A stretch of DNA of 63,877 bases, the filler included, from Lenisia limosa (taxonomy: Eukaryota; Protista; Breviatea), in assembly GCA_001655205.1 (NCBI GenBank). It is 15 parts of 15 records of this genome, joined end to end, with 100 filler letters (N's around TTAATTAATTAA, not from the genome) between each part and the next. Parts side by side here need not be neighbours in the genome. Positions count along the whole stretch, not along the records: positions 2,088 to 9,409 come from LPNZ01002255.1; positions 9,510 to 12,067 come from LPNZ01008410.1; positions 12,168 to 26,520 come from LPNZ01011602.1; positions 26,621 to 28,927 come from LPNZ01010524.1; positions 29,028 to 30,315 come from LPNZ01003850.1; positions 30,416 to 37,349 come from LPNZ01010850.1; positions 37,450 to 41,931 come from LPNZ01007876.1; positions 42,032 to 43,415 come from LPNZ01007883.1; 7 more parts are not named here. One strand, 5' to 3'. Position 1 is the stretch's first letter. Every line of letters starts with the position of its first letter. A program made the translations under genes and the position numbers. The notes beneath the pieces were generated by a model that worked only from the letters and a program-made list of their open reading frames with translations, was not told where the DNA came from and made no database searches. Below, piece by piece: positions 2,219 to 63,865 of the stretch.

Positions 2219-4318
2219 CATTACTCTATAACGATCGTTCCCCTCTCGAGAACCACCACTGTCACACCGCCTTCAAAATCATGACCGAAGACGCAGGCAT
2301 ACTCAACTTCCTTGACGATGAAAGCGTAATATCCGTGGGGGGGGGGGTGCAATCAGGCACGCAGAAAGCTGTGTGCACAGAGTTGTAAGGCAAATGATTG
2401 GGTGAATTAATATTNNNNNNNNNNNNNNNNNNNNNNNNNNNNNNNNNNNNNNNNNNNNNNNNNNNNNNNNNNNNNNNNNNCCCCTCTCCTCAGTGTCGAG
2501 GGCTGTTCCTGGACCTTATCCTGGCAACTGATATGAAACTTCACTTCGACTATGTCGCTAAAATGAGGAACGCTTTAGCAGAAAGTTGGGGGGATTGGTG
2601 TTTTTTATTATTATAAATCGTTTTAGTGGTTTGCTTTTACCTATTTACTTTTTATTATTATTGTTGTTGTTTGGGGGGTTATGTTCCCATTATTTATCCC
2701 GATTCGGTGGTGCTTGGCTTTGTTTTTTGTACGTTGATGATGTTTGTTTTGTGTTATTAACCCTCTTGTATTGTCAGCCAACAAGTTGATTTTGGGCTCT
2801 TGTTTGTTTCCAGTTTTACTCCCCCCCCCCCTCAGACTTTGACCCAGCCAACAACGGGGTGCACAAAGATGCCTTAGTGGCGCTGGCGTTCAAACTCGCT
2901 GACGTCAGCCATGTTATGGATGCCTTGGAGTCGACAATTGACTGGACTACTGTGGGGGGGGGGCGACTATTTGCTTTAAACACCTGTTATCTAATGCTTA
3001 GCCAGCGAAGTTGATTTTCTTTCAAATAATACTATTCCTTTTTTTCTCCCCTTTAATTGGGTTTAGAGAATCAATGATGAGTTCTTTTCCCAAGGTGACA
3101 ATGAGGTTGGTACCCTTTTATATATTATATGATTCGGGCTTCACTACTTTCGGAAAAAACTCTATCATACAATGGCCATTCCAGTGCGGTGGCGCAGGTG
3201 TATGGTGAAATTATGTTGTTTTATGATATGCATATCTATATCCGATTTATTGTATTTTTTTCAATATTGGGTTCTGCTATGATATTTAATTTTTCGAATA
3301 TTGGTTTGTTGATGGCATTTTAGGCCGCTCGCGGACTCAGCATCTCAGCATTCATGGACAGGGCTAAGATGAACATTCCGCGATCACAGCTCGGCTTCTT
3401 AGACTTCGTTATCAAGGTGGGGGGAATGGCTTCACTTCGGTTCGAAAATGACCAGTAAAATATCGATAGTTTTTGAGTAGAAAGTCAGTCTTTTTTTGAA
3501 CCGTAAAGTCCTAGTAATACCATTGGGGGGGGGGGNNNNNNNNNNNNNNNNNNNNNNNNNNNNNNNNNNNNNNNNNNNNNNNNNNNNNNNNNNNNNNNNN
3601 NNNNNNNNNNNNTGATATGTACAGAGACTGGGATAAGTTTTGACCGATTTGTTTTCTGATTTCCGAAGGAACATTTATATTCCTCAAAAGGAAAATCGGA
3701 CATGATTTTTCCCGGTCAGTGTATATAACATAAGCATTACAAGGTGGGTTTTCTTCCCTCGTGTTTATATGGACTGCTTTCGTATTTTGTTAGCATCTCA
3801 TCCTCATCTAGCCAATGGTGGAGATTTGGGTCGAATTTAGTGAAGATCGCACACCGCTGACACTCCTCTCCAACAACAGGGCGTATTGGGAGAAGTAAGG
3901 AGGGGGTTGGATACTAAAGAATGATGAAAATTAAAAGTAAGGGTCAACTCGTAAATAAGAATCCTCCCCTCCCTCCCCCAGGAGGACTTGCTTTTCTTTT
4001 TATTAACTAAGGTGAATCTGTTCCCTTGATTTATTATGACCGCTTCCAGTATTTCTACAGACCTTTGATTTTATTTCTAGACTGTCGGAAGTGGGAGTGA
4101 TCGGCACTTCCGAAGACAAAAATCCCAAACCCGCCACGCCGCCACAGGCCTCTAGCCTTTCCGATCTGTCACAACTATCATCCGCCTCCATAGGCCACAT
4201 TGGCCACGACCTGCCGCCGGAAACGTCATCCGAACCGCATCTTCAGAGCAAGTTCGACGTGGCCGTGCCGGGGACAGGGTCTCAACCCAATACACCGCGG
4301 ACAACCTGCGGGGTTTGA
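2219..4318 (+). CDS. Class I 3',5'-cyclic nucleotide phosphodiesterase, C-terminal catalytic half and tail (5' part missing)
   Basis: Spliced exons give YNDRSPLENHHCHTAF, LFLDLILATDMKLHF, LAFKLADVSH, RINDEFFSQGDNE, ISAFMDRAKMNIPRSQLGFLDFVIK and LSNNRAYWEK. These are canonical PDEase_I motifs including the invariant Gln. A Ser/Pro-rich tail ends at TGA 4318. Confidence 0.92.
2350..2414 (+). repeat. Family B intronic element, 5' part (runs into gap)
   Basis: GGCACGCAGAAAGCTGTGTGCACAGAGTTGTAAGGCAAATGATTGGGTGAATTAATATT, directly after a 5' splice site and a G11 run. Confidence 0.8.
2735..2835 (+). repeat. Family C 3'-splice-site-associated element
   Basis: TGTTTGTTTTGTGTTATTAACCCTCTTGTATTGTCAGCCAACAAGTTGATTTTGGGCTC... 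followed by a C-run and the CAG acceptor of a PDE intron (2585-2835). Confidence 0.85.
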
Positions 4319-4657
4319 CGTGGTTTTGTGTTTAGTATTCTTCAAGGTTTCAAGTTTGAGTTTTGGTGAGTGGCCAATATAGTTGTACAGTAGTTCACTT
4401 CTACGTTGTGGGGTGGGTAACAAAGCGATTTTCCCAACTCTAAACAAAGCCCAGAGCTCACGTCATGCCTAGCATTAGTTCTCTGACACATTCTAGCTTT
4501 ACGCCCCTATGCGAAGTAATTCTACTTTTTCTATTGAAACTTTCTAGCTTTGCGTTCCTATACCCTGTCTCACCAATGCTCAGTCTTACTTTTACCCTCT
4601 TTCAACCCTTAACCACTCCTCAACATTTCCATATTCATGAATCTATTTCACAGATTG

Positions 4658-6933
4658 CTACCTTTTTGTACAATGGGCGGAAAGCCACTCGAGGCCTTGC
4701 ACAAGACCCTCACCACTTGTCGCACACGAGGGCTGCACATACCTAAAATGTCATAACCATCTTTCACTTGTTTTTTTCGAGTATGGACGATTCTGATTCT
4801 GACCGGCCCCGCCCCCTAAATTCTTGTCTTAGTTGCCAAAATTATTGTACAATTTTGTTCATAAAAATACTTTTTATTTTTTTTAACTACAGACACTGCC
4901 ACCCCCTTTTAGATGAGCCCTAAATTCCTTTTCTTTTTTTATCCCTCATCATAATATTGCGTGACATACTGATAATCAAAGAGGCACATTGCGTTTTGAC
5001 CACACAGGTTCATAATTGACAACAATGCGCATACCATTTATTCGACTTATACGCCGACAACTCAAGAACTTCAGCCAAAGCCGCGGGATTGAGGGCGGAG
5101 GGGTTGTCTTGCTTGTTGGCAAATACCAAAATACACGAGTCCTGTAGATAAAGATTACAGCAAAGTCCACTAAATCCTTTTTTGGAAAAGAAATGATTGA
5201 CTAAAATGATTCTATTATCCCTAAGTCTAATTTCTACTTTGTTTCTCTCCTTTTCACTGTGAATTTACCTATGATTGTGATCTAAAGATTGTCAACATCC
5301 CTGTCTGACTATGAGTGTAACTTTTATGATCATAGTCATATTTTTCCAAGAGCAAGTTTATTTGGACTTCAGAAGGGAATAATGACTTACAGCTTTGAAA
5401 TAACATTCTCATTACTTGTCTCACTTTACTTCCCCCACCCCTGCGCACTTTGAGAGCGTCTGAAGACATGATTGCTTCAAGCTCGCCACGTGCCTCCTGC
5501 ATTCGGGTCTAAAAGTTCGTATAAGAAATCAAAAGAGAAACTAAACATTGTACGTTTGAAAAACCAGATATACTATCAATATTCTAATTATTTTCCATAC
5601 AACCAAATCACATGTTTGAAATTGAGTTCTTCAATTCAAAATTGATTCCATTATGTTTCCAACCTTGTCACTCGCATCCACCACGTAAATCATAGAGTTG
5701 GTACCTGAGAGATGACTCACAAAGAGACAGAACTAAAAATCGATATTACTATGTTAAAACTGTTAACTGTGAACTTGTCATTGAAGGTCATGAAAGACCC
5801 ATTGGATTATACGAAAACGATCCGATTACATCAATCTATCCATTTGATTATTTGGGACTAGAACATACTATGTACATACTATATCAGCCGTGCTAATCAA
5901 TTATATTACATGAAGATATTGAGTGTTATCATAAAAACGGTACAAAATGGTAAATAGTCGAAGAGGTGTTGGTTGTGAAGTAATAGGTAGAAAATGAGAA
6001 TTATTATCCCATAGTGGAATCACAGTAATGGAGGTACATTGAAAGAAGAGGTGAATTAGCAATGAAATTCGACGCTTACCAGTAAAGTAATGGTACCAAA
6101 GCGGACGCATACGCTGCTGACCTCCAAGGTCCTGGGTAGTTAGCCATTTGACAGAATCCCGCTTCTATTCAATTTCTCATTAATAGAGGTAATACAAATC
6201 AATTAACATGTCAATGGAGTTTTGGTACAGCGTCCAACTTAAAAATCCATTAGACTAAGTCCGTAATTGCTAGATTTATGTTCACTACCGTCCCAAAAAA
6301 GACTAAATTTGCCGATCACTCTACGAAAAATATCTATTTTTTTGGTATATTTCCAACATGAAAATTTGAGTATGCCCTTCAAAGTGTTGGTTTGAAGGAT
6401 AAATATGTTCCAAAATGAAAGTAGAACATAATAATGCGCACAGTTTTTCAATTGGTTTGAATACACTTAACTTGGCATACCCAGACATGGAACTTAACCT
6501 TGCCGTGTGAAATTGTGCCGACATTGAAGCCGACTGTGGGAATCGTGGAGACGGCCTTGCCAAGTTGAAGGTGGTACAGGATTGCTGGATGTTGGAATTG
6601 AGAAATAATAATGGCAAGAATATGATTATTATTTGGAATGACATGAAATAGAAATCATGAATTGGAATGTAATTGAGACATAAAACATAATAAAACTGAT
6701 TTCAAAGAATGTAGTGATTAATATTGTCAATACTATCCTTTCAAATGGTCATTGTTTCGTGAAATTAGTCTTGTCACCACTCCCACTTGACTTGCCCGCT
6801 GAATCTAGTCCCACCTAAACAGTCAAACGCAGAGTTTGAATCAGATACTATAATAGCTTTACCATACCATAACAATCTTCGCTTCCTTCCCCCCGAAAAG
6901 TTTGTTTATCAATCTTGAAAATGACTGCCCCAT
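4658..6933 (-). CDS. ADP-ribosylation-factor family small GTPase (ARF/ARL), complete 8-exon model
   Basis: Spliced product MGQSFSRLINKLFGGKEAKIVMVGLDSAGKSTILYHLQLGKAVSTIPTVGFNVGTISHGKVKFHVWDLGGQQRMRPLWYHYFTGTNSMIYVVDASDKTRMQEARGELEAIMSSDALKDSCILVFANKQD...WYVQPSCATSGEGLVQGLEWLSAHCTKR*. It has G1 (GLDSAGKS), G3 (WDLGGQ), G4 (NKQD), G5 (CAT) and a myristoylatable Gly2. All junctions are GT-AG. Confidence 0.95.
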
Positions 6934-7213
6934 TTCAAGGGGAGCTTCCACTGTAAAAAGGGTGGAGCTTTTTCGATTAAGTTCACTAATATAAAATCAA
7001 ACTACGCTAGACTGTTGCTTGAAGAATGGTTACATAGTTAGCAAAGAGAAATCCTGCGGCTTTTGCTTATTATGAAAGCCAAAATCATTCTTTCCTAATA
7101 GGGAAACTGTGTCATTTCTTTCACTTCTGTTGACAAAGCCGACGTAGTATTGGAAATAAGCTCTGCTAACACTGTGATATATCGCTTTTAGTTGCCTAAA
7201 GGAGCAAAGTAGC

Positions 7214-13808: not shown

Positions 13809-13821
13809 TGTAATATATAAT

Positions 13822-14307: not shown

Positions 14308-17300
14308 TACTTGGGTCGGGTTTTTCATGGTATAAGACGGCACAATAGCGCACACGCTGTACTTGTCGCTGTAGGACACTTTACCCTCAAGGTCATAGGG
14401 GGTGACGGCCGCCAACTGGTGCAGCTGGATGGTGAGTATTTTGGGTACGTGACCAACTCGTTGCGTGCATTCTTGTGCCACGTATTTGACTGCCTTGCTT
14501 CGCAGATCCTCGCGGGCCTGGGGAAGGGGGGAGGTGAGGAATGGCAATAACGTAACAAAAAAAGAGTGGACAAAACGAATGGAAGGGGTCAACGTTGAAA
14601 GTGGGTCACAGCAAACCTCTCGCTCAAACATCGGCAACAAGTGGGTGTAGAGAGCGTATTTGATAGCGTTTTTGCGAACCGTGTCCCACTAAACATGTGA
14701 CATGCAATGAGAAATANNNNNNNNNNAAGCCCCTGCATAATAACCCAGATAGTAATAGGAAATAATAATTCCCAATCATTTGCCAAACAACTCTATGCAC
14801 ACAGCTTTCTGCAACATATAATATAGAAAGACCTACATCAGAGAAGCCAGGAGCACTGTTGTTCTCGAACCACTTTTCAACTGTTTGCACGTGGCCCTCC
14901 TCCAGCTAAACCGTGAGAAGCGAGGGGAAATGATACCAAGATGCGGAGGAAGGGGTACTGGAAAAGTAAAATTGAAAATTTATGAAACAAAATAAAAGTA
15001 AGCCCAAAATCAACTCTATTGGCTAGCACCAACACACAAGGGTTGAAACAACAAAACAAACAAAGTCCAGGCCAGTCGCTTCTGCAGCCCCGCATCCCAT
15101 CACTCCAGCATNNNNNNNNNNNNNNNNNNNNNNNNNNNNNNNNNNNNNNNNNNNNNNNNNNNNNNNNNNNNNNNNNNNNTATCATTTGCTGGCTCTCAGC
15201 CTTGGCCAAAAGGAGGTAGAGTTCTTTAGAGAACGTAGATAATGGCTTCTTGACCAACCACTTGACTGCGCCGAATGGATGTGTCGCTGTCATGGTGGGC
15301 TGAGGGGTGAGACCGAAACGATGTACCTACCGCGCCCTTGTTGGTCGGAATCGTAGTGATGGTTGCGTGCATTTTGTAAAGGTCTCGTGCCGCTGCTCGG
15401 AACTACAATGTTAGATTCGTTGGCATTGTGCCTCTCTCACCAGAGGTTGATAAGACAGAATTCGGCCGAAAACGGAAGTTGCCTTTTTGAGGCAAATGCT
15501 CTTGACTACAGACTCAACCTGCTCGTCCTCCTTCACCAACTCAATAACCTAAGGTGTCAGATCCGCTTGTCAAATGAAGCCTCACCAATTCGGGGTCATC
15601 TTCGCACTCTTTCGGGGTCTCCATTTGGAACCCGTTGCCGATGTTGACGGCAATGTCGGCGGCGGAAAGTCCGATGCGCTACATGTGTTAACCAGGGTGG
15701 TACTTCAGTGAAGAAGTCAGATGTAATTATGAATATATTTTGTGATACACTACTTATACTATATGCTGACCATTTATAATATGCAAATCAACATATCTCT
15801 TTATAAATACTCCCCTTTTTGCCCCTTTTCTCTTCAGCCGACCTTGCTATCATATCAGATCAGATACAAAACGATGACATAACCGCTTACGTGGATGAAG
15901 TCATGGTAGATCGAAATATCGCGTGCAAGGGCAAGCCGAGTGGGGTTGCTGTTTGGCTGCAACGGTCATCGATGCGAGCAAGTATTAATATTGTTTTAAA
16001 AAAATATTACGTACAAATAGTAAATATCAGAGCAAAAAGTTCCAGTAACGTCATCTTTTTATTAAGTTTTACTGTCGGTTGTTTATCAACATGTTAATCA
16101 CGCAAGTCAAGCTTCTATTTGTATACCAACCGAGCCCAATTTTGAATATACCCTGCATTCAAAGCCTACCTCATCCTTGATTTCACTGAAACAATCCGAG
16201 GCCATTGCGAGCGCCTTAGGGTTGTCCTTGGACCCGAGAAGAACCTACAGCGTCAGAACATTATAGAATTGACTTGCTCAGCAATTTTAGAAAAGTCAAT
16301 TTCACAAGCACATGTGATTAAAAGCAACAAAACACGAAACATATATTGCTGGATTCCTCTGCCCCGGTCTTTTAACCACAGTCCCACCTTGACGAAATCG
16401 TTAATGTCATTGAGGGCATCGGCACTTCGCACGTCTCGAATGTGCGAGGCAAAGGACAGCATCTCTGCATCACTGCAACGTCAGATCCCTCATGCGGCAC
16501 TTACGTGTTGTCAAAAGCTGGGTTGTCGTCATTAAACTTCTCGAGGTATGACTCCCTCTTGGCGAAGATCGAAGCCCATTGTTCGTCAAGCTCAACAATT
16601 TCAAAGATCTGGGGCTCTGACAGGATATTGACATATTCGTCCTTGCGGTACACCATAATGCGACCAGCGTCCTCCTATGGGGGTAATGAAAAATGAGGGA
16701 AACAAACGTGGTCCTTCAGATGCCTGTTGAGCACTCCCGAAATGCAGTCAACGGTTTTGGTCTCCGATGCTTGGTCATTTCCCTATTAAGTCACCAACGA
16801 AGGAAATTTCGATGAAACAAAGAAACCCAAAATCAAATCTGTTGGCTGACAAAACACGAGCGGGGGGGGGGNNNNNNNNNNNNNNNNNNNNNNNNNNNNN
16901 NNNNNNNNNACACAAGGGTTAATAACAACAAAACAAACAAAGCCGAGGCCAGTCATTTCTACAGCACCGCATTCCATCACTCCAACAAACAAAGCCCAGG
17001 CCAGTCGCTTCAACAGCACCGCATCCCATCACTCCAGCGTACGAGGGGGGGGGGTAGACTTTATTCACACAATACATTAATTTGCAAATATTCTGAGTTT
17101 CAGGCAATACTACAAGAGAGCAGAGGACCTACATTTGGGAAGATCTGGCCATAGATCCACTCAGCCTCCTCATCAACGAACTCGGGCTCAAAGCTCTTAG
17201 GATGACGTGGCACCTTGAGACGGCTGATCTGTTGCCACTCAGGCAGGTCCGTAAGCCTGATCTGGTCGTCTTTGGCGGTCATGAAGTTCTCCTTCAACGA

Positions 17301-26199: not shown

Positions 26200-26747
26200 G
26201 TGAGTTTACCAAGGTTTTAACTCACCGAGTGGGCTCGTATTGGGATGGGATTTGTTTTACCTCACAGTGGGAAATACTTCCAAAACAGGTGATGGTGATA
26301 TGACCTACCGACTCATAGTATTACAATGGCAATTGTCATAATACGATATGATATTTGATTATGACTGTTTTGGCGTTGACGGCTCGGCTGGATACCTTTA
26401 GGCTAGTTGATATATCAGTGGGGAGCAACGCAGAAAACTGTGTGCACAGAGTTGTAAGGCAAATTATTGTGTCAATTAGCATTATACTATAATTCAATAT
26501 CTCTTATAAGCGTGATGGTGNNNNNNNNNNNNNNNNNNNNNNNNNNNNNNNNNNNNNNNNNNNNTTAATTAATTAANNNNNNNNNNNNNNNNNNNNNNNN
26601 NNNNNNNNNNNNNNNNNNNNAAATACACCACCCCCCGTTCGCTGGAATGATGGGATGCTGCTACAGAATTCTTGTGTGTTGTCAGCCAACAGTTTTTTGT
26701 TTCATATATTTTCCAATTCTAATTCCCTCATCATCATACTTCCCTAG

Positions 26748-28577
26748 GCTGCACAACTACAAGAACCCTTACCTTGCCCCCATTGGACACTCCTATCAAC
26801 TCGAACAGGTGGAGAGGGGGGGGGGGGGTCTNNNNNNNNNNNNNNNNNNNNNNNNNNNNNNNNNNNNNNNNNNNNNNNNNNNNNNNNNNNATAAGCGTAC
26901 GGCTTTGGCCAGATACAACCTTGTGATTTCTCATTTCTACAAACATGCATACATACCTACATTTAATAGATTAGGAAAGTATAATGTACTATATGACAAT
27001 AACTCTCGTCTTCACTAAAAAAACTCTAAGGTGATATTGACGTATTGATTTGTTTCCTGAATGATATTATTTCCAAAAACATTCTAAATCTAACCCGTTT
27101 TAGGATGGCTCACATCGCCAGTGCATTCATGCCGAATTGGATATCAGCGGAACAAGAATGAGGTTAGTGGCCTCGGCGGTGACAGCCCTTGTGTATTGTC
27201 AGCCAACAGAGTTGATTTTAGTCCTTTTTTGTTTCATCAATTTTCAGACCTTACCTTTGCTCATCGATTTCCTTCGTTTTACACCCCCCCCCCTCCAGAT
27301 ACAGACCTGGCGACCACTTAGCGGTTCTTCCTAGCAACCCCAAGGAAATGGTTGATTCTTTCCTCGATCATTATGGAGTGGACGGCAACCGAGTCATCAA
27401 AATGTTCCATCATGGTGGGGGGGGGGGGATAACACTCGTGCTTCACTTCGGTTCGAAAAAAAGACTGAATTTCTCGAAAAATCCTCAAAACTGTTGATAT
27501 TTTCCCGGTCTTTTTTGAACCGAAGTTTAACCCTAAATTTAACGTAACGTGGCATTCCTCCAAGAAGCTGGAGTAGAGCTTTTCACATCATGCAGTTTTA
27601 TCAAACTTAATGTTCCTCCTAGAAACGGGAGAAGAACTCTTCAAGGGCCCCTTGTCCATCCGAGTCATCTTTGAGAAACTGACTGACCTGGCCTCGCCTC
27701 CCCGCAAGGACTTCTTGAAGGTTTGGCTTGCAGTATAGTCTTGTACCCTTGTACCGACAGTATACCTGTCCGGCGTTTAAATTTTTCACCCTATTAGCCG
27801 ACAAGTTGATTTTGCTTCTTTTTTTTTGTTTAATGTAAAGGATCTAAATTTTCCTTTTCACCCCCTCCCCCAGCTGATGAAGTTCTACGCTACAGACCCC
27901 AAGGAAATTAAGGAGCTTGAACTACTTTCTTCTCTCTCGGATGAAGGAAAGGTATAGAGAGGAGTCATATTTGATCCTTACTATTTTGAATTAATATTAA
28001 ACTATGATCCAATATCTCTTATAAGCGCCGGATATAACCATTTATTATTTTGTTTTTCTCATTGCTATACAAGAAGGGTTGCTGTTTTTGAATTATTTTT
28101 TGTATGCTACTCCATTACACCGTCCTGTCTAAATCCCCCTAGTTGGCCTATGAAGAAAAGATTCATGTGTGTCGAATGACCCTCTACGAGGCCTTCTTCA
28201 CGTTTCCTTCAGTCAAAATGCCCCTCGATCATTTCATTGAAGCGGTTCCCCCCCTCTCACCTCGCTACTACTCCATCTCGTCCTCTCCTCTCGTGAGGGT
28301 GGTGGAGGTTAAGATTTTTATTAAAACTTCCTTGCGGTTCCGAAACACCTGTAAAATATCGACATTTTTTGAGGATTTATCAAGAATTCAGTCTTTTCTG
28401 GAACCGAAAGTGAAGCCCTCGTATTTGTTCTCTTTTGAGCTTTTTTTTTTGTTTCATAAATTTTCCAATTTTACCTCCACCCCCATAGGCCCATCCCAAG
28501 TCCATTCACATCACCTTCCGCGTGGTAGATTGGCGTACCCCCCAGGGCAAGGGAATCAAGGGCATTGCAACGTCATG
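26748..28577 (+). CDS. NADPH-cytochrome P450 reductase-like diflavin reductase, FAD-binding region (internal fragment)
   Basis: KNPYLAPI; RQCIHAELDISGTRMRYRPGDHLAVLPSNPKEMV; LTDLASPPRKDFL; PLDHFIEAVPPLSPRYYSISSSP; SIHITFRVV..GIATSW. The RYYSISSS and Y..GDHLAV.P.N motifs are those of the POR/NOS/MTRR family. Confidence 0.9.
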
Positions 28578-28763
28578 GTTGGTTTCGTAGGGATGAACAG
28601 GGGATTTTAAGGACGCGATTGTCAGAAGCTTCAATTTCTAATTTTACTCCCCCTCCCTATATGAAAGAGTTTTTTTATTATTTCAAGTAGTATAGTATAT
28701 ATATGATATGTATATTATATATTTGATATAGCTTTATGATAATATACATATATATATCCAAGG

Positions 28764-28894: not shown

Positions 28895-29104
28895 CTACAT
28901 ATTTATTTACATCATATATTTCTGATANNNNNNNNNNNNNNNNNNNNNNNNNNNNNNNNNNNNNNNNNNNNTTAATTAATTAANNNNNNNNNNNNNNNNN
29001 NNNNNNNNNNNNNNNNNNNNNNNNNNNCCTGGTGCTAATATTGTTCATCGAAATTTCCGTTTGTTTGTTTCATAGATTTCCAATTTCACCCCCTCAGAAG
29101 CGAC

Positions 29105-29199
29105 TGTCCTGGTTTGTTTTGTTGTTGTCAACCCTCGTGTGTTGTCGGAGTTGATTTGGGCTTTTTGTTTCATAAATTTTCCAATTTTACTTGGCTCAG
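29105..29199 (+). repeat. Family C element abutting an acceptor (second of two tandem 3' modules)
   Basis: GTCCTGGTTTGTTTTGTTGTTGTCAACCCTCGTGTGTTGTCGGAGTTGATTTGGGCTTTTTGTTTCATAAATTTTCCAATTTTACTTGGCTCAG|exon. Confidence 0.85.
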
Positions 29200-30315: not shown

Positions 30316-30826
30316 NNNNNNNNNNNNNNNNNNNNNNNNNNNNNNNNNNNNNNNNNNNNTTAATTAATTAANNNNNNNNNNNNNNNNNNNNNNNNNNNNN
30401 NNNNNNNNNNNNNNNAGTTCACAGAACAGCGAAGTTAACGAGCGGGAGATCCAGCGATCTGTCAAACCTGCCTTCTTTATGCACGGCCTTCTTGCACTTG
30501 CTTTGGTAGGAATGGGGCTGTAAATTTTTGGAACGTCACATGTGCATCATTTCTTAGAATCTTTCAAAGAAAAACGTTTTTTCACGGAGTGATGGGATGC
30601 AGCGCTGCAGAAGCGAATGGCCTGGGCTTTGTTTNNNNNNNNNNNNNNNNNNNNNNNNNNNNNNNNNNNNNNNNNNNNNNNNNNNNNNNNNNNNNNNNNN
30701 NNNNNNNNNNNNNNNNNNNNNNNNNNNNNNNNNNNNNNNNNNNNNNNNNNNNNNNNNNNNNNNNNNNNNNNNNNNNNNNNNNNNACATTATATTTCTCCT
30801 AATCCTAAATGACATTACACATGCAG

Positions 30827-37587: not shown

Positions 37588-40500
37588 CCATCTTTTAAGG
37601 TGTATATCCTGGGGTTGAAACGGACTGCGGAAGTTGGGCTGTCAGCGCCGGGCAGGTTGAGGAGCGGTACCGCATTCGACCTGGGTGTGAAGATGGTAAG
37701 TTTTGTTTTATATGTAAACAAAACATAGGAGGGCTGCAAATTTTTTTTCAAAAAAAAATTGCCCAGGCCTATCACTTCTGAAGCAGCGCATCCCAAAATA
37801 TAACGTTGGTACTATTTTGACCCAATAGCTCACCCCCCACCCACCCTAGGGCATCCGCACTTGAAAACACGAAGGTCTGGTTCTCGTCTTTGCCCTCGGT
37901 GGCCTTGATTCGCCCTAAATCTGTGATCTTGGACTGTGTATATAAATTAAATTATATAATACTAAATTCGGAATCCTGGGTTGTGAATAAGATTATATAA
38001 TTCCGCAATCTTGGGTTTACACATAAATCTAAATCTGTATTTATAACTCTAAACAAAATCTATTTATATCAGTTCTCGATGGCGTTTATTCTTGGGTCAT
38101 GCAAACACTCTTTGGACTATTTGATTCGAAACTCTTAGAAAATAAGCTATTTGGATAATCCAAAATCGTATAAAATCCCTAAAACCGTAATAATGGGACA
38201 TGTAAAAAAATCTTGCCAGAAACCAAATTCCCCCCCACCACTTGGACAGACCAAAAGCGCTCCATCAGGACTGTAAGCCAATCTACGGTAGAACCTGGCA
38301 ACATTAGTTACATTAACGTTACATTAGCGTTACATTAGCGTGACATTAGGGTTACATTATTGTTACATTATTGTTACATCAGTGTAATATTATTGTTATA
38401 TTAGTTTTAATAAACTATCTACTTTTGTGAAGTCAACCGCTGGATCTCTATGATTCTAGTTTCAATAGAGACTTTACTGAAAACAATTTTTAACATTACA
38501 ACAATATTGGATACATTAGCTCCCCCCCCCCCCNNNNNNNNNNNNNNNNNNNNNNNNNNNNNNNNNNNNNNNNNNNNNNNNNNNNNNNNNNNNNNNNNNN
38601 NNNNNNNNNNNNNNNNNNNNNNNNNNNNNNNNNNNNNNNNNNNNNNNNNNNNNNNNNNNNNNNNNNNNGGTCTTTTCGAACCTAAGTGAAGCCCTAATCA
38701 CATGCCCTCCATCCTCCCCCCACGTTGGAATATGCTCGTCATGGAACAATCTAGCCCGGACCTCCACCGGTTTCTTCGGTCTAAGACCGCCCTCATCGTC
38801 ACTTGAATCTAGGGGAATATGAGGTGGGGGAGTAAAACGAAGGAAATTTAGATGAGTACGTTGGCGTAAACGTAATAATCACGAACCGGATAATCTGAAA
38901 CATAAAGAAAGTTCATGAAGCAAAAAAGCCGAAAATCAACTCTGTTGGCTAGCAACACAAAAGAGTTAAGAACAGCAGAACAAACTAAGCCAACCCAAAG
39001 TGCTCTCTTAACTATACTATTACTAATGTTTTTTTACATGTAATATATTAATTATATCTATGATTTTTGATAGTAATATATAATATGTGCAAAATTAATT
39101 AAAATGATGTTTTAAGGATTAGGATTAGGTACAATATCCCCCTCAAACCATTTTTTGATTTCTGGGGCTTCTTTCTCCCTCTGACCACATCTTCCTCATC
39201 ACTATCAGATTCTGCTTCAATCGCACTGAAATGTCAAATATCCTCAATTGCCCTGAAAATGTCAAATCTCTCCTAATGTACTGCAATGCTAAATATCCCT
39301 CCATCACAGCATATTTTTCATTTTTCGGTCATTTTCACAACGGTAGACTATCGTTTTCCATTCAATGATAAGCCAACAAGCCCCGCTGAAAATATGATAC
39401 TCTCGGGGTGAACCCTCGCGTTATCTCCGTTCATCATTTCGACAAGTCGGATATATCATCATATCACTCGTGGATATGTCATAATTTTGACTCGAAAGTC
39501 GGACATATCCTCAACTCACGAGTGAATATCTCATGAAATGATATGGGACACAACGGCATCCATGAAAAAGAATACCTGTTCTCTTTGGGAGGTTCGTCTC
39601 CGGATTCGGAGGGCTGGGGAGCGGGTTCAGATTTAGGCTCAGATTTAGACTCGGATGAAAGGTCCTCCCTAGGTTGTAAGATTTGAAAGACAAATAATAA
39701 CCAATCATATCCTATATTGTTAGTCCAAGCCCTTATTAGCTAATCCCCCACCCTCGCGCACTTTTGTTCGGGTCCCCCTGGGGCAACAGGATTCTGTTCG
39801 GCCTTGATTTTGGTCACGGCGGCGGCCCGGGAGGATATGTCGGTTTTGGACAGATGCGAGATATTGCCACTCGAAGTGAAAGGCTGCGGGGAGGGGTATA
39901 CATTATACTTTATATTAAATAGAACAGAATTTAGCAACACATATACATATTACATAATAACAAAAAAAAAAAGAGAGGGAGGAAGTAATCATTCTAGGTG
40001 TCCTTTTTGTGCTTTGTAAGACGCNNNNNNNNNNNNNNNNNNNNNNNNNNNNNNNNNNNNNNNNNNNNNNNNNNNNNNNNNNNNNNNNNNNNNNNNNNNN
40101 NNNNNNNNNNNNNNNNNNNNNNNNNNNNNNAATCGCATTGCGACCAAGAGATCCCGTCAAGATATCAGTGTCGATGTGGTACTCAGATGTCTTCACCGAG
40201 ACCTCTATGATTTGGTTAAGTATTATTGATGGATACAGATTGTGGTACCAACTGTGGCGTTAGTGTCAGGTGGCCATTTTCGTAAAAAGAAAGGCAACGA
40301 ATGGGAACGGGTAAGATAATCTATTATACCTTCATGTCTGTTGTGAGTCATACGCAACAGTAATTCCTAAAAAAAAGGTGGCCATTATTTGACGTTGTCA
40401 GATCCCCCAACCGAATGGAGCCATCTTGCTGAAGCACTGTCCGACTTGTCAGTCTGATATTGTAAATTACTGTTCCATATTTGCCAATTACCAATCAGCT

Positions 40501-50236: not shown

Positions 50237-53200
50237 GAGAACTCCTCACATCTCTGATGGAGCTTGACTTGGCAATTGACGACTTTGACACTGCTCTGAC
50301 CATCAACCCCTCTCAGGCGACATCCTATTATAAGTATATTGGGGAGTGGACAGCTTCGGCCAGATACTAGTTTATTTTTTTATTTTATTATTATGTTTTC
50401 AAGTTTTTTCGTTCGCGGAAGTTATGGGATTGTTGTGTTCAACCCCCATGTGCTGTGATCTAACAGAGTTGATTTTGGCTTTTTTGTTTCATACATTTCC
50501 CAATTTACCCCCCCCCCCTTACAGACGCGGAAAAGCCCACCAGCTTGCAGGGAAAACCGACCGAGCNNNNNNNNNNNNNNNNNNNNNNNNNNNNNNNNNN
50601 NNNNNNNNNNNNTTTGCGGACTACTCTACCGCCTTGACATGTAACTCCAAGTGGGCGGTTTACTAGGGTTTCACTTCGAGTCTTTTTTCGAACCGAGGTG
50701 AAGCAGAAGGTATAACGTGCCTGAATCTTAACATGAGGGGAGGTATAACGTGCCTGAATCTTAACGTGCCTGAATCTTAACATGAGGGGAGGGGTCCAAT
50801 CTATTAATATTTCAAGAGGAGTCTTGTTTTTGTTTTGAAGCTGGTGGATGTAACTCAAGTCTCACCCTTTGTTTGTTCTGTTGACACTTGTATGTTTCCC
50901 AAATGCTTAGCCAACATAGTTGATTCTAGTCTTTTTGCTTCTTGTTGTTTCATAACTTATCCTTTTTACGTGTTGATGTTGATCTAATCTTTGTTTCGTA
51001 CACATTCTTATTTCACCTCCAGATATACTCCAGCGTTGATTGCGAGAGCAAGTCTTTACCTCAGTCAGAGAAGGTATCAAAAGGTCGGCTCTTATAGACC
51101 GAAACAACGAAATAGGGGGGGTGTGCAAACTTTATATTAAACTCATAAATCTCTGAGTTACTCGTTTTTACAACTCATAAATCTCTGAGTTGCTCGTTTT
51201 TACAACTCATAAATCTCTGAGTTACTCGTTTTTACAACTCATAAATCTCTGAGTTACTCGTTTTTAGAACTCATAATTTCAAGCAAAATTGTAGTTGAGG
51301 TGCCAGTTCTAACTTGTGATAGTATTGAAAGCTAACATACTCAGGCCCAACTTGACGCTACATCAATCATTGGAAGCCCGAATCGAACTGGTCTTGCCTT
51401 CCTTATTAGGGCAAAAGCCAAATTGGGTCTAAACGCACGTCCAAGTGATGTTATTGTGAGCTTGGATTTAGTAATTGTATGGTATCAGTTATTTTTGCAT
51501 TTTTTTTTCGTTTTTGCTTCAATGATTATTTATGTGGACGGTCACATAATACTTCTTCTTATTTATCTTTCTCAACATGTTACTCTTTTCTGGACTTAGT
51601 TTTGATATTTTTACCTTTTGTATTTTCCAAGGTTTTTTGGTTTCATCAATTTTCCACTTCACCCCCCACGCAGCCAGATCTCTCCGCCGCCATCACACTG
51701 GACCCTTCGTGTTGGGAGGCTTACCTTCTCAGGTTGGGTTTCTTTATCCTATTCTAGTGCATACGTTGTTTTTAATTATTATTATATTGATATTATTTTT
51801 ATTATATTGATATTATTTTGATGAAATTGATATTATTATTATTGATATTGCTGAATTTATATTTCTTCATTATTCGTTATCAAGCAAAATCCCCACTTTG
51901 GTGAACCATTATGGACTAAAAAATCAAACAAAGAAGGTTTTACTACCCATTCGGGTATTGGTATACCAGAGTGCTTCCTGGAGTAAATGCGGAAACCAAT
52001 CCTTTAGCCAGGACCTGAAAAGGATAAGTCAACTTTAATGTTGCAAGCATATAATATATCAAGTGAACAGAAAACAACAGAAAGCAAAAAAGCAAACCTC
52101 AAAAGAGGGAGATATATACCTGCGATATGGACCACTGTCCATCCGATGGTAGCATTTTAGGACTGGAAGAAATGATAGAATACTATTTCAGAATCAAAAC
52201 TCTCAAAACATTCGCAGGTAAAAATAATAAAAAAAAAATTACCGCAAATACATTGCCTGACTCTTGGTAGCAACTATATAGTAGACCAAACAAACATTTT
52301 TTTGTTCTTAACAAGGATTTTTCTAACATCTCAGGGGCAAGTACTGTCTTGAATCAAGCGTGACTCAATCCATCCGGTAGGTTACAATAATATGGGCAGT
52401 GGACTAGGGGAANNNNNNNNNNNNNNNNNNNNNNNNNNNNNNNNNNNNNNNNNNNNNNNNNNNNNNNNNNNNNNNNNNNNNNNNNNNNNNNNNNNNNNNN
52501 NNNNNNNNNNNNNNNNNNGTACACAAAGTTTTAAAATCTCACTTACACAGCATATCGATATTGGGACTTCTCAATCTTTGTTGTTTCATTATCATGCACT
52601 ACTATTTAGAGAACTACCCATACTACCCGTCACCTTTCAACCAACATATGCCCATCACTTTTCACGTATCATTCTCTATTTTGTCACCATCCATTTAGGG
52701 ACCTGTCCATATGCATTGTGCTGAATCCGAAGCTCGCCACCCCCTTACTACTCCGAGCCAGAATATACTCAGCAGAGGGATCTACCAGCTTGGCCGCCCG
52801 CGACTATCAGTAGGATTTGGATAATAATGAAGGCTTCGTACATTTAATTAATTAAATAATTTTGAAATTTGTAGTGGGGTAATGAGCAACTTATTTCAGT
52901 CTCTGTTTTAATCTAAGCTCCTTACTACGACTTCACTTTGGTTCGAAAATAGACTGAATTTCTCAATAAATTCTTGAAAACTATCGATATTTTTCGGAAC
53001 GGAGGTGAAGTCGTAGTGCTACTTTTTTTTTTATTAATCAAAGATCGCCATTAATGCCTCAGGTCAGCACTACGTCTAGACTACAACCTAGTCACTGCAC
53101 ACTACAATCTTGGCCTTCTTTATTTGGATGGCGAGGTGAGTGGGTCCTTGTTAGAGCTGGGTTTCCTTTTTTTGGAATGGAGGATAAGGGGCTAGGTTTG

Positions 53201-54180
53201 TTATGTTTGCACGCAGTATGATTAATTGGGTGGAAATATTTACTATAATCCAATATCTCTTAAAAGCGTGATGGCGTGGACAACTTCGGCCAGATACTAG
53301 AATCCAATATCGTTTATAAGCGTGATGGGTGTGGACGGCTTCGGCCATTTTTCATTCGACTGTAATACACGCAGGACATCACGTCGGCGGAGTATTGCTT
53401 CAAGGAGGCACTGAGTCTTGATTCGACTCTTTTAACGGCGCGTGAGGCTTTGGTTGAGTGTGCAAGACATGCAGGTGGGGAGGGGACTCTTTTATATAAT
53501 GCATTATTACTATTTTATTGTATTATTACTTTATTATTAGTTTTTTTTTATTATATTATTCTTATTTTATTTTTATTATTTTTATTTTGTTTTTGGTTGG
53601 GGGTATCCGTCTTCTATAAGGGGGAGGGCTGTTATGGGTTATTGGTAGAGGGGTTTTGTTTTTCTTACCATATTAGACAACTTGCTTACCATTTAGGCAA
53701 CTTCCTTCTTGGTGCTCGAATTGCCTCGCATTTAGTCCACCAACAGCCGTGGAACCCCTCTGCCTACCTCAGAAGAGGACAGTGTCTACTCGCTGCTGGA
53801 AGAACGGAGGTGGGGGGCGTGGGTGAAATCAGAAATTTATGAAACAATAGAAGCCCGAAATCACCGCTAAGAAATAGAAGAAAACCCCTCTTGAATTTTA
53901 TATTTTTATTTTTCTTAAAAATAATTGAAACTACTTACCTCATTTAGAATGTTTTTTTTTTTAATAAAAAAAAGGTATCAATGATGAATTATATACTTAA
54001 TTTGAACACACCGCCATGTCATATATTCCGTATTAATTATTTCGGATCTAATTAACCTTATTAAAAATCCCATCTCTCCCATTTCTGATAAAATTAACCC
54101 TCCAGTTGGCCTCAGAAGATTTGAACAGAGCAGTTATGCTTTCGGTTCCCCTTCAAATCGCACTTAGAGCCCAGGGAGGG
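50237..54180 (+). CDS. Tetratricopeptide-repeat protein (TTC6/TTC16-like superhelix), internal fragment
   Basis: About 10 exons with TPR consensus: LAIDDFDTALTINPSQATSYYKRGKAH; ADYSTAL; ALIARASLYL; DLSAAITLDPSCWEAYLLR; SALRLDYNLVTAHYNLGLLYL; SAEYCFKEALSLD; PWNPSAYLRRGQCLL; ASEDLNRA. Confidence 0.85.
50400..50524 (+). repeat. Family C element abutting an acceptor
   Basis: ..TTGTTGTGTTCAACCCCATGTGCTGTGATCTAACAGAGTTGATTTTGGCTTTTTGTTTCATACATTTCCCAATTTACCCCCCCCCCTTACAG|exon. Confidence 0.8.
50708..50792. repeat. 33-bp tandem repeat with an internal partial duplication
   Basis: AGGTATAACGTGCCTGAATCTTAACATGAGGGG x2.5, directly after an internally deleted family A copy. Confidence 0.8.
51140..51277. 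repeat. 32-bp minisatellite with a palindromic core, 4.3 copies
   Basis: AACTCATAAATCTCTGAGTTACTCGTTTTTAC x4. Each unit contains an AACTCA...TGAGTT inverted pair. Confidence 0.9.
52924..53017. mobile_element. Family A foldback element with private arm ends
   Basis: ACTACGACTTCACTTTGGTTCGAAAATAGACTGAATTT ... TTCGGAACGGAGGTGAAGTCGTAGT. Confidence 0.8.
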
Positions 54181-57249: not shown

Positions 57250-57343
57250 GTCTTTTACGCTGGAGTGATGGGATGCGGTGCTGCAGAAGCGATCAGCCTG
57301 GGCTTTGTTTGTTTTGTTATTATCAACCCTTGTGTGTTGTCAG
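57250..57343 (+). repeat. Family C element, 5' two-thirds (runs to the scaffold end)
   Basis: TTACGCTGGAGTGATGGGATGCGGTGCTGCAGAAGCGATCAGCCTGGGCTTTGTTTGTTTTGTTATTATCAACCCTTGTGTGTTGTCAG. Confidence 0.85.
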
Positions 57344-59101: not shown

Positions 59102-60930
59102 CTGTGGACGTTGTGGTGTTTTTCGACTCAGATATCGACCCTCTCAATGACGTGGAAATGCTGAACAGGTGTGTGTGTGGGGGTGTTTCTAGGCCTTCAC
59201 TTCGGTTCGAAAAAGACAAGCTAAGTATCAATAGTTTTCGAGGATTTATCGAGAAATTCAGTCTTTTTTCGACCGAAGTAGAGCCCAAGGTGTTTCCCAA
59301 GATTATTGAATGTTGATTATTCTAACTCAGGAATAAGGTATTTGAATAAAGTGGAGGGGTTTTGCAGTTTAAATATGTAGGGGGCGGTGTTTCCGTAGAT
59401 ATTTTGAATGTTGATTATTCTCTGAAATCAATTGACACAATTTGATATTAAAGTGCCTCTAAATTTAATTTATATGACACTATCATTTGCGCCTCCCTTC
59501 AAAGTTTGCAACTATTGTTTCAATTAGTTGCACGGAGTCGTTATTTGTCATACAACTAGGTGACTATTTTCTTACTGATTCAAGGATAAAGTGCCCGGGT
59601 ATCCCTCGGGTGTACAGACTGGTGAACAGACACAGTCATGAGGAACTGGCTCTGCAGAAGGCCTTGAATAGCGTGAGGGGTATGGGGTAGGTAGTGTGTA
59701 AAACCTGTGAGAGGGGGAGTAACATTGTGTAATGTGTATGTAATTATATGCATATGATATATATGTGTATATTCCCTCCCTTTTATTTATTTATCATTTT
59801 CAACAACTATTTGCCTAATTGCCTTTTTAGCTGAAGGCGAACAGTGATACCATTGGTGTTGAAGATCAAATTAACAACCTGTCCAGGTGAGAGAGCACAC
59901 TGTTCAATCTTGGGGTAATATATAGAGCTTCACTTTCGGTTCCTTAAGACGTGTAGATATTTATCGAGGATTTATCGAGGGTTAATCGATGTGGACATCT
60001 TTTTGTCGGGTACAACCTTATTTTTTTATTTCCCATTGCTCTATGATATCTGATACTCTAATGGGCATCTTTGTCTCAATACAACCTTTCTCATCTTATA
60101 TTTATCACATGATTTAACCTTGAACAGATTAGTGAAACAAACTGCTGCAGTTCTTCATCTTCCTCCTGATAACTATGAACAGTTTTATGCTGAGGTTTGG
60201 GGTTATCGTCAATCTTATCAGATGTACTGCAAAATATAAAATATTATTATGACAAATTAATTTTTTGAAAATTAATTGACAAAATTTGAAATGAAAGTGT
60301 CTAAAATGGAGATCCCTTTAGAATATGTTCTGCAACAAAATTTTGCAATTTAATTTATGAATAAAATTTCTCATTTTCCTCCCTCCGCAGAAATTAGAAG
60401 CCCTTGTCATCCCCCCTGATGCCCTGCGTACCAATCTTGCCGTGTCCACCCCTAAAGGTCCTGTTGACTTGGACTGTCCATTGTTCTGGGAAAAGGTGTG
60501 TGTGNNNNNNNNNNNNNNNNNNNNNNNNNNNNNNNNNNNNNNNNNNNNNNNAATTGCGTGTTTGTGAGTGAGAGAAGTAAACATCTAACTTATGCCACAT
60601 ATCTTCACCTTGCTACATTTTACATACTTTAATAAGGATTCTGTGGGATTTTAGTAACATTTAACTCTAATGTTTACCCGTTTTGTTGTGTATTTCTCAA
60701 CTGTTTACATCAGACTTTTTTTTTGCTGTTTCATAAATTGTTTATTTTTTACTCCTACCCCCAGGTACTCCCGCCTCTAGCCCCTGTCAAAACAGAGATG
60801 ACAGCAAAAGAGAGGGCTCTCTCGCGCACTCGTCAAAACATCGCGCAAAACACGCAAAGAATTGCGCAAAGCACGTCAAGAATAGCACAGGCCACTCGAC
60901 CATCCGACCAAGATTATATCATGGTTCCTG
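59102..60930 (+). CDS. SNF2/CHD-family helicase C-terminal lobe with degenerate motifs, plus tail (fragment)
   Basis: AVDVVVFFDSDIDPLNDVEMLNR|IKCPGIPRVYRLVNRHSHEELALQKA aligns to the SNF2 consensus [38 protein letters not shown].IL..A. Confidence 0.7.
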
Positions 60931-61320: not shown

Positions 61321-61949
61321 GGATTATAATCCCTAAATCTACAGTCCTTTGCACCACCAGGCTAACATTTCAGGCACTTTCGTCCTACTGCGACCTACGT
61401 TTTGACCAAAGCGACCCGCATAACACCGTGCAACCAGCATGCACTTTCCCAAGTGAATCCGGGGGCATAACGCGTGCGCCGTGCATGACAACCTCATTAA
61501 ACAACATGATAGCTGAAGCGCAGAACCGTGGATTTGTAGTGTCACGTGACTCGCTGATTCACCCTTTTGCCACCATGGTGAAGGTCCGGGCAAAGTTGGA
61601 GGGGGGGGGATATACATATACTATATGNNNNNNNNNNNNNNNNNNNNNNNNNNNNNNNNNNNNNNNNNNNNTTAATTAATTAANNNNNNNNNNNNNNNNN
61701 NNNNNNNNNNNNNNNNNNNNNNNNNNNCACCCCCCAGGGCTTCACTTCGGTTCGAAAAAGGCAGGTAAAATATCAAGAGTTTTTGAGGATTCAGTCTTTT
61801 TCCGAACCTAAGTGAAGTCCTGCTCACCCCTACCATCATTAACCCAAATTTGTACACCCCCTTTCCGAGGTTAGCCTTTCAATGGTACTCCCAACTATTT
61901 GTTTTCGTTTTGTTGTTAAAGTCGAATAACATTTCAATTAATCGTGGAT

Positions 61950-63865
61950 TGTTTATCTTTTGACTTCCCCGCACCATTGGACCGAAGTGAGAGGTTCATT
62001 ACGAGGGCGGTCAGATACTCAACGCTAAACTCGGACAAGTTCTCAATATCACTGAGGAGGGTAAAATTGGAAAACGTTTGAAACAAAATAACAAAACCAA
62101 CGATAACAACAAAACANNNNNNNNNNNNNNNNNNNNNNNNNNNNNNNNNNNNNNNNNNNNNNNNNNNNNNNNNNNNNNNNNNNNNNNNNNNNNNNNNNNN
62201 NNNNNNNNNNNNNNNNNNNNNNNNNCCCAGGTCAGTCGCTTCTGCAGCACCACATCCCATTACTCCAGCGACGCTATCATGGGAGTATACTATCAATATA
62301 TCATCTTTATACAAACAAAATCACAGAAACAAAAATAAGCCCGAGTTAGTCTTTGAAGAGTCCAGCTCCGTTCCATCAGGAATATTGTGAAAACAAAAAG
62401 AGGGGTGGGTGGGGGGTATACGAGGATAGGAGTCTGCCTGTATATGAGGAAATAAGTGCGTGTGGCGTTTCCAAAAACACACTCAAAATTACTCCCCCCC
62501 CCCCCAANNNNNNNNNNNNNNNNNNNNNNNNNNNNNNNNNNNNNNNNNNNNNNNNNNNNNNNNNNNNNNNNNNNNNNNNNNNNNNNNNNNNNNNNNNNNN
62601 NNNNNNNNNNNNTTGGCAATTTCATGATAGTATCAAATTAATTCACCCAATCATTCATCGTGCCTCCCCAGCATACTCATACTCACTAATTATCATTAGA
62701 TAATAAAAAAAATGAGAGTAGAAAAAAATGTGAAATAAACACAACAAGGAGGAACACACCAATTCAGACACACACGCACACAAAAAACAAACAAAAACAA
62801 AAGAGAGAAAAACAGTCAATAGACTAGACTCTATGTCACAATAAAATTACTAGTATCTCTTTTTTTTTTGATTGACTGTAAATCAATTCAAATAATTATG
62901 GATCCTTAACGAACATTGACACAATGTTTTGGTCGACACCTAACAATTTGACTTGATGACCTAAAAAAAAAATATCACAATTCCACCTACCTCAGTGATA
63001 GTTTCTGTATGGCACCTAATGCGTTTTGTCTCAGAATTGAATCCCGGGGGGTGGACTGAAATNNNNNNNNNNNNNNNNNNNNNNNNNNNNNNNNNNNNNN
63101 NNNNNNNNNNNNNNNNNNGTTAAAATATCATAAAAACGAGCCGCTAAACGTAAGGATTATTTCATGGCGTTAGGGTCTGATTTTGGCTACATGTGACCAA
63201 AAATAATGAAATTGTGGCGTTAGATTACTTCGTAATGAATCTGGTTTGGAGACGAGCTAAACATATCATATGTTTTCCACTCACTTGCATTACATTGAAG
63301 AGTTTTTCACAGATTGAGCCTGACGACAGCAGGTAGAGGCGGCCCCTATGATACGACGAAATCACATTCAGCTGAAGTGTGACGGTNNNNNNNNNNNNNN
63401 NNNNNNNNNNNNNNNNNNNNNNNNNNNNNNNNNNNNNNNNNNNNNNNNNNNNNNNNNNNNNNNNNNNNNNNNNNNNNNNNNNNNNNNNNNNNNNNNNNNN
63501 NNNNNNNNNNNNNNNNNNNNNNNNNNNNNNNNNNNNNNNNNNNNNNNNNNNNNNNNNTTAAAAGTTCACATGAAAACTCGTACAAAACCCGCAAAGTACC
63601 CTCAGAAAACCTGCACTAAAACCCGCACTAAAACCGCACTATAGATTCATCATATAGTTTAGCATCAAGCAGAAGCCAACAAGAAATATTGGAAGACACA
63701 GTGGCAGCCTATTAATCAGTCTTATGAATACCCCCCACTCATACAATAAGATCCCCCCCTCACCAGTCGTAGTCCATACTCTCGGACAAGCTCCGAAGGG
63801 TGTTGGAGAAGACTGTCCAATACAGCAGGCTTGTCGCCAACTAGGCCGAAAATATCCCGTGCTGG
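61950..63865 (-). CDS. ARMC9: LisH/armadillo protein ARMC9 (ciliary), internal fragment
   Basis: VLDSLLQHPSELVREYGLRL / LNVISSYHRGRLYL / TLQRL / DIENLSEFSVEYLTALVMNLSLRSNG. These parallel recalled ARMC9 segments [65 protein letters not shown]. Confidence 0.78.
62060..62272 (-). repeat. Family C element (gapped), sense to the ARMC9 intron and abutting its acceptor
   Basis: Reverse complement CGCTGGAGTAATGGGATGTGGTGCTGCAGAAGCGACTGACCTGGG..N..TTTGTTTCAAACGTTTTCCAATTTTACCCTCCTCAG|exon. Confidence 0.8.

Follow-up and report, generated by a model that had tools for sequence, protein, structure and literature searches.

Mobile elements are normally purged between the branch point and the acceptor of an intron. 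Introners, as presented in the accessible text of PMC9860276, are intron-confined repeats that lie sense to their host genes and carry a 3′ splice signal, and some of their families have neither terminal inverted repeats (TIRs) nor target-site duplications (TSDs). Alu/L1 and the elements Waldo, Mino and Kibi leave 3′-anchored, 5′-truncated copies in simple-sequence targets that include the tails of earlier copies, according to the available portions of PMC3812793. Here we describe family C, a repeat of about 150 nt from the breviate Lenisia limosa that shares these features. The stretch analysed (hereafter the window; 63,877 nucleotides, GenBank assembly GCA_001655205.1) comprises 15 scaffolds of an intron-rich genome joined with N spacers, holds 4,811 N in total and has a GC content of about 37%. 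Family C is very probably a secondary invader of the acceptor tract, and we lean towards a non-autonomous, TIR-less element akin to a short interspersed element (SINE) that inserts in the acceptor C-tract of existing introns and replaces their branch point.

Results

Family C is anchored at intron acceptors

Family C was analysed as copies within the window, plus a partial contig view from DNA run X1. A profile seeded with 12 window copies returned 28 matches at E < 0.03; of these, 25 reached E < 0.01, including 12 outside the seed set; the 11 controls (the reversed window and 10 local shuffles) gave zero matches at E < 0.01, the best E of the reversed window being 0.92. A preliminary description of this DNA had placed the repeat at about 20 sites, and 18 of the 19 listed were recovered at E < 0.01, the SNF2-like site (60723-60761) being weak (E 4). 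Additional pieces lie at 2970, 29056, 31797, 50867, 54205 and 62226, with weak ones at 225 and 37332.

The element has a GC-rich head and a T-rich body. Its copies are old and diverse, with a median pairwise identity of 74% and a maximum of 91% over 151 pairs. Homology among them ends at a terminal motif, TTTAC or TTCAC, beyond which the tract varies. Among 26 pieces, about 8 copies cover the 5′ columns and 19-20 the 3′ columns, a profile partly shaped by assembly gaps. The proposed pattern of 5′-truncated copies with a retained 3′ end therefore stands as regards the better-covered 3′ columns but needs amending at the other end: the 5′ end is defined because about 8 copies cover it, and internal deletions are common. 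Intron 32737-32858, noted earlier as almost entirely element, is 89% family C, and intron 27163-27298 is likewise 85%.

In X1, possibly itself the source of the window sequence, single-copy stretches have a depth of 22-32, and bins with family C pieces sum to 112,838 and 110,109; summed contig depth is not copy number, as the tool warns, and the 110,109 bin also contains part of a miniature inverted-repeat transposable element (MITE). These depths point to thousands of family C copies in the genome. Right past the terminal motif at 28474, 127 X1 contigs diverge from the reference, with a poly-C consensus (agreement 0.45), and a further 177 diverge at 28484. Both window copies and X1 contigs have a C-run after the 3′ end, and this run may be the host's own. 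Exact 21- and 23-base family C patterns gave 0 matches in JGI metagenome contigs.

With host strands taken from exon prediction, 26 of 28 copies are sense to the host gene (binomial p = 3e-6), on both window strands. The bias described earlier is thus upheld, the two antisense pieces being 53814-53868 (clear) and 9580-9615 (weak, E 0.018). Its proximity to acceptors is upheld too: the median distance from the end of a window copy to the next exon is 15 nt, and 13 of 20 measurable copies end within 20 nt. For the TIR-bearing families A and D the median is 76 nt, with 0 of 21 within 20 nt (p = 4e-6 against family C), and for family B, a further repeat, 1 of 11 lies that close. The expectation that ordinary repeats are free of such bias holds for position, where only family C stands out, but not for orientation, as family B is sense in 17 of 19 matches with known host strand. 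Family C occupies 20 of the 103 scored acceptors, about one intron in five, 13 of these within 20 nt of the exon. No family C match at E < 0.03 fell in 4400-9409 or 42032-50014, two gene-poor stretches where MITE copies do occur.

The exons behind these counts came from a small self-trained gene finder applied to 17 regions, with the strand picked by eye and repeat-derived and weak exons removed; 4 of 107 curated acceptors were left out (N or wrong coordinate). The 75 predicted introns have a median length of 165 nt, and the donors carry G at +5 in 79 of 89 cases and a G-run of at least 4 after 37 of 89. Pfam backs 11 of 18 exons tested at E ≤ 0.01, and four Pfam-backed exons lie directly 3′ of repeat-bearing acceptors (cEGF, ARMC9_ARM and FAD_binding_1 twice). 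Contigs of RNA run X2 span introns 26809-27103 and 27415-27622; donors 27163 and 28582 mark points where they stop, and the repeat-bearing acceptor 26747 one where they enter. X2 covers a small share of the window (0.09) with contigs uninformative on strand or level, and splice junctions other than those it backs are mostly predictions.

The 3′ end resembles a branch site followed by a C-tract

In repeat-free introns, YTNAC occurs within 25 nt of the acceptor in 51 of 83 cases, compared with 13 of 83 upstream and 6 of 83 antisense control windows; its A mostly precedes the exon by 8 nt. These motifs divide into 30 of the strong YTRAC type, of which 2 have a C-run, and 21 of the YTYAC type, of which 9 do. 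At repeat-bearing acceptors, YTNAC lies within 25 nt of the exon in 17 of 20, always as weak YTYAC and never as CTRAC. The element had been said to lack the clean CTRAY branch motif; this is correct for CTRAC, but a branch-like YTYAC is usually there. The family C 3′ end, found 7-20 nt ahead of exons, is a weak form of the genome's branch motif, in which the putative branching A is assigned by its position. C-runs of at least 4 mark 12 of 20 repeat-bearing and 16 of 83 repeat-free acceptors (p = 6e-4).

Two of the mechanisms put forward earlier, that the element supplies a branch point and that it integrates into poly-C acceptor tracts, draw support from this anatomy, namely the terminal YTYAC at those 17 acceptors and a C-run 5′ of some copies. 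In 5 of 24 copies, a C-run of at least 4 stops no more than 4 nt from the 5′ edge, compared with 0.75% of intron positions (p = 9e-7), by a rule chosen after the flanks were inspected; directly 5′ of MITE copies the count is 0 of 25. Copies also stack: in 29056-29199 the second starts behind the tail of the first, and 16783-17043 is made of three pieces (Table 1). Pairing of donor G-runs with acceptor C-runs was considered and rejected, as the two did not co-occur (C-run in 5 of 25 G-run introns and 16 of 41 others, p = 0.17). Whether all weak-branch acceptors are decayed family C ends is left open by a slight shift alone (21 versus 30 acceptors, p = 0.02).

Most repeat-bearing introns of the reductase gene lie at human-shared positions

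To date introns, we aligned exon ends and phases of the reductase gene to the 678-residue POR chain 9ef0_A, presumably the rat enzyme, and read the boundaries by eye. Direct PDB searches with two short exons missed mammalian POR, and a longer relative served as a bridge. The numbering offset is +3, such that A284 and R454 of 9ef0_A equal human A287 and R457; the human chain 3qe2_A has the same register. Human intron boundaries were taken from the accessible parts of PMC4986620 (c.830, 1066, 1248, 1398) and PMC13158119 (c.947); the latter names another reference transcript, and its c.1249 agrees with the numbering of the former.

Acceptor 26747 splits codon 277 in phase 2, as at human c.830. 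Intron 27163-27298 falls in phase 2 within codon 316, the Arg before the GDH motif (c.947), while introns 27952-28142 and 28293-28488 follow codons 416 and 466 in phase 0 (c.1248 and c.1398). Intron 27415-27622, in phase 1, lies within one residue of codon 356 (c.1066). There are thus four exact matches to the human boundaries given in these sources and one within a residue, and three of the introns concerned carry family C. With 7 window introns in about 570 nt, a hand estimate puts the chance of four exact matches near 1e-7. Human-shared positions account for 3 of 4 repeat-bearing and 2 of 4 repeat-free reductase introns.

Upstream of the element, seven of nine fully readable repeat-bearing introns retain unrelated sequence of 47-159 nt; in the other two, the element comes within 5 nt of the donor. 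The claim that the element created these introns is therefore contradicted where it could be put to the test, in one gene, and the judgement that it is no textbook introner is borne out. The survey of Gozashti et al. (2022) was designed to keep out secondary insertions into introns already present, as the available text of PMC9860276 sets out; by the criteria given there, ancient positions and unrelated upstream parts make family C a secondary insertion and not an introner.

Family C shows SINE-like traits

As noted earlier, family C has no obvious TIRs: its end-to-end local score is 3, below the shuffle mean of 3.5. It also fails the test for a MITE or TIR DNA transposon; families A and D do have matches on both strands. 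RNA folding was no better than that of shuffles (z +1.55 and +1.00) and Rfam gave no match, and an intronic snoRNA or other structured RNA was rejected. Helitrons end in a 3′ CTRR preceded by a GC-rich hairpin; family C ends in TTTTAC without a stable fold, and a non-autonomous Helitron was likewise rejected. A classical introner fared no better, similarity to both splice boundaries being absent in 7 of 9 introns and positions ancient in 3 of 4. The 3′ anchoring and variable 5′ truncation are SINE-like. An A-box-like motif (2 mismatches) and a B-box-like motif (0-1 mismatch) stand in SINE order on the sense strand only, a weak signal equalled by 20-40 of 2000 shuffles, with thresholds chosen after inspection.

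Discussion

Family C as a probable invader of the acceptor tract

A retroposition route for family C is somewhat more likely than not. The element would enter the C-rich stretch that separates the branch point from the AG, and its terminal TTTAC would be left as the new branch point. It would be copied through RNA by a reverse transcriptase of the long interspersed element (LINE) type, primed on the G strand of the C:G tract, with its C-rich 3′ end pairing to that strand as Alu does with A-tracts. The strand carrying the C-run would direct priming and so set the orientation of copies; such priming would also leave copies 3′-anchored and 5′-truncated. By bringing back a branch motif at a suitable distance, the element may let its insertions persist where they are normally forbidden, and mirror-image insertions at donor G-runs would mostly be purged.

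Several observations weigh against this account. The intron-age test rests on a single gene. Most copies (19 of 24) lack a C-run upstream, and branch motifs on their own show no enrichment there (3 of 24 copies, p = 0.29). A C:G target acting at the DNA level should leave many antisense copies at donor G-runs, but antisense family C occurs at 1 of 37 such donors, compared with sense copies at 12 of 28 C-run acceptors (p = 7e-5). This scarcity may be due in part to a cryptic CTGAC...AG on the antisense strand, found in 4 of 8 sense copies examined and in neither antisense piece. The element contains T4-T6 runs, which could halt RNA polymerase III and so argue against transcription of the element by that enzyme. 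Rfam gave no match at gathering level in the window, nor at E ≤ 10 over 14727-15111, and ARAGORN found no gene; no tRNA, 5S or 7SL head was seen, though a decayed head could escape. No exact TSD was found in 15 flanks (one decayed case, at 62272, is suggestive), and no partner reverse transcriptase gene was recognised among window ORFs read by eye. Two introns retain just 4-5 nt upstream of the element and would need an extra deletion.

Those two introns, 85-89% element and one of them at an ancient position, would be explained by an unlikely alternative in which the element is itself a small spliceosomal intron. Its excised RNA would be mobile, re-enter 3′ splice sites or exon junctions in a splicing-coupled manner and then be reverse transcribed, sometimes overwriting the old intron. 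Such a mini-intron turned retroposon would home to intron 3′ ends and overwrite from the acceptor side, which is replacement and not gain; through it, thousands of ancient introns would have exchanged their branch point, and some nearly all of their sequence, at an unchanged position, and it is possibly the source of the genome's weak-branch-plus-C-tract acceptors. It accounts for the sense bias and the missing antisense copies at donors without selection. Four of six intact 5′ ends with visible flanks start with GT, three of these with the +5 G that is likewise usual in host donors, and AG stands 0-1 nt before the start of two copies (29098, 62272). A GT at a constant position counts for little, however, and none of the nine readable introns begins at the element's own 5′ end. 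The element has no stable fold, and antisense copy 53814-53868 adjoins a G-run exactly as a DNA-level target predicts. Spread at the DNA level, by repair of breaks at unstable C:G tracts from other intron 3′ ends with the branch motif and C-run as microhomology, or by an unrecognised TIR-less DNA transposon, would agree with the lack of an exact TSD and of a tRNA-like head by Rfam or ARAGORN, with frequent internal deletions, with junction microhomology (CAG at 29095-29097) and with C-runs on both sides. We consider it quite unlikely, as a sharp 5′ boundary common to about 8 copies and a copy number in the thousands better fit a discrete master-copy unit than ad hoc repair.

Selection by itself could in principle have produced the pattern, if an untargeted repeat inserted at random and only sense copies beside acceptors were left. 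Introns here are short, with a median of 165 nt, family B shares the sense bias (17 of 19), and orientation near exons is shaped by selection in mammals, going by the accessible text of PMC3088655. Mid-intron sense copies that contain no AG ought to do no harm, yet 13 of 20 copies end within 20 nt of an exon, where comparison repeats are rare (MITEs 0 of 21, family B 1 of 11); upstream C-runs are enriched, and the two gene-poor stretches hold MITEs but no match at E < 0.03. We disfavour random insertion as improbable. Still less credible is a classical introner that created introns by exon insertion and whose 5′ parts later decayed. The sense bias, the two near-whole-intron copies, the TIR- and TSD-free introner families of the available PMC9860276 text and the one of four repeat-bearing reductase introns not found in human speak for it. 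Three of those four introns are at human positions, compared with two of four repeat-free ones, and 7 of 9 introns have unrelated donors and 5′ parts. It is refuted at the tested sites, and possibly made a minority of new introns elsewhere.

Individual copies

Family C copies and the gene behind the intron-age test are collected in Table 1. The working acceptor of the SPT6 intron with copy 14958..15111 is either the AG ending that copy or an AG 52 nt further on. The antisense copy at 53814-53868 is without the part that would read as a cryptic acceptor.

Table 1. Family C copies in the window and the reductase exons used to date introns
Feature	Position	Strand	Remarks
Near full-length copy, SPT6 intron	14958..15111	-	Ends in branch-like motif, pyrimidines and AG
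Three partial copies compounded in one SPT6 intron	16783..17043	-	C-runs directly before two; variant tail ends 20 nt before exon
5′-truncated copy, phosphodiesterase gene (PDEase_I match)	2701..2835	+	Branch-like motif, C11 run, acceptor
Reductase copy, 5′ end intact, internally deleted	26636..26747	+	C-run before; acceptor 26747 RNA-contig-backed; human POR c.830
Reductase intron, 85% element, 5 nt upstream	27163..27298	+	Human POR c.947 position
Truncated reductase copy behind older branch-like motif	27794..27873	+	Intron position not in human POR
Element 3′ end, C-tract and acceptor, reductase	28439..28488	+	Intron 28293-28488 = human POR c.1398
Two tandem copies, exon downstream cEGF	29056..29199	+	Second begins right behind branch motif, C-run and AG of first
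5′ half of copy, cyclase gene	30579..30634	+	Remainder in assembly gap
Decayed 3′ end, then long C-run and gap	31797..31848	+	
3′ part of copy at acceptor	31992..32056	+	
Copy behind family A MITE	32298..32427	+	Ends 7 nt before exon
122-nt intron, 89% element	32737..32858	+	
Decayed copy at acceptor, CHAF1B-like WD40 gene	37681..37795	-	
Copy with longer variant tail	38809..39004	-	Branch-like motif, C-tract, acceptor
TPR gene copy, 5′ end intact, internally deleted	50411..50524	+	C11 run, acceptor
Decayed copy behind older branch-like motif	50867..51022	+	Second decayed 3′ end at acceptor
Decayed copy at acceptor	51591..51673	+	
Clear antisense copy	53814..53868	-	3′ end adjoins donor G-run (C-run on element strand)
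5′ part of copy, acyl-CoA synthetase gene	57255..57343	+	Cut at scaffold end
Weak 3′ remnant at acceptor, SNF2-like gene	60723..60764	+	Profile E 4
Full-length copy split by gap, ARMC9	62052..62273	-	Ends 9 nt before exon
Seven exons, NADPH-cytochrome P450 reductase-like gene	26748..28581	+	Basis of intron-age test

Some family C copies and one family B copy share a variant 3′ tail, which also ends at a branch-like motif (2185-2218 (+), 16783-16815 (-), 27262-27282 (+), 38832-38852 (-)); this suggests subfamilies or a second small acceptor-anchored unit. The GC-rich head of the element is open in frame, with a GTTTG donor-like site behind it, and was called as a false exon at 57249-57306, 16991-17031 and 62226-62273; exonization could start from it, or it could have been captured as an exon-intron fragment. 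The whole of a 33-nt SPT6 intron, 16675-16707 (-), resembles the last 35 nt of family C and went unscored by the profile. The weak piece at 225 is a 3′ piece (225-243) within 1-1987, whose exons we take to resemble neurofibromin; Pfam gave no such match.

Other repeats and features of the window

Family B, of about 155 nt, occurs at 13806-13971 (-), 2109-2191, 2355-2414, 26414-26520, 27987-28075, 53208-53347 and other sites, and folds no better than shuffles (z 0.00). Its 5′ end is a short G-run that, reverse-complemented, reads like a C-run acceptor; antisense copies may be purged because of this mimicry. Families B and C as the two ends of one introner were rejected, since they have one intron in common (50334-50524) and lie mostly apart otherwise. 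Family A is a 105-nt MITE-like repeat with TIRs, found in both orientations (1509-1611, 26008-26110, 35412-35513, 59189-59289 and about 20 more) at an X1 depth of about 231,000. Family D also carries TIRs and measures 110-135 nt; its ends begin in the same way as family A's (28760-28893, 30044-30153, 56623-56705, 59424-59542). Tandem repeats of 23 nt and 32 nt lie at 37450-37583 and 51140-51267. A cysteine-rich ORF with repeated CC motifs, about 297 residues long, runs without interruption across 44242-45135 (+) in this otherwise intron-dense genome. A PRP17 exon has 60-76% identity to fungal and other eukaryotic proteins, and protein searches returned none from the organism itself (best match 72%). 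Across the window, several assembly gaps start or stop at G or C homopolymers.

Significance and comparison with described systems

Family C seems to carry the repair for its own damage. If true genome-wide, thousands of ancient introns have had a core splicing signal remade by a selfish element, and acceptors have shifted from the strong CTRAC type to a weak TTTAC-plus-C-tract type. The case also carries a warning that common intron 3′ ends can mimic introner-made intron gain where positions are old. In the literature accessible to a search that was thin on subscription papers, we found no described element that takes over the branch points of existing introns.

Introners enter exons and are alike to both ends of the intron, whereas family C is anchored at one end and lies at ancient positions (PMC9860276, accessible text). 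Fungal introner-like elements and sister stwintrons likewise have no TSD, and an RNA route has been proposed for them, but they show new, species-specific intron positions and terminal symmetry, neither of which is seen in family C (PMC12403724, available portions). For mammalian intronic transposable elements, the parts of Zhang, Romanish and Mager (2011, PMC3088655) open to us report an orientation bias strongest near exons, as in family C; those elements are depleted near exons, however, and the ones within 20 bp favour donors, whereas family C is concentrated within 20 nt of acceptors. Alu/L1 and microsatellite-targeted non-LTR elements (those without long terminal repeats) use tail-to-target pairing in target-primed reverse transcription, with A or di- to tetranucleotide tracts as targets, in the accessible account of PMC3812793; in family C the tract is C and forms part of a splicing signal. 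Unlike Alu/L1-type elements, the candidate was found without a TSD, a partner or a tRNA/7SL head. Family C passes neither the introner nor the MITE tests, and its SINE status is unproven; it acts like a target-specific retroposon and carries a splice signal as an introner does.

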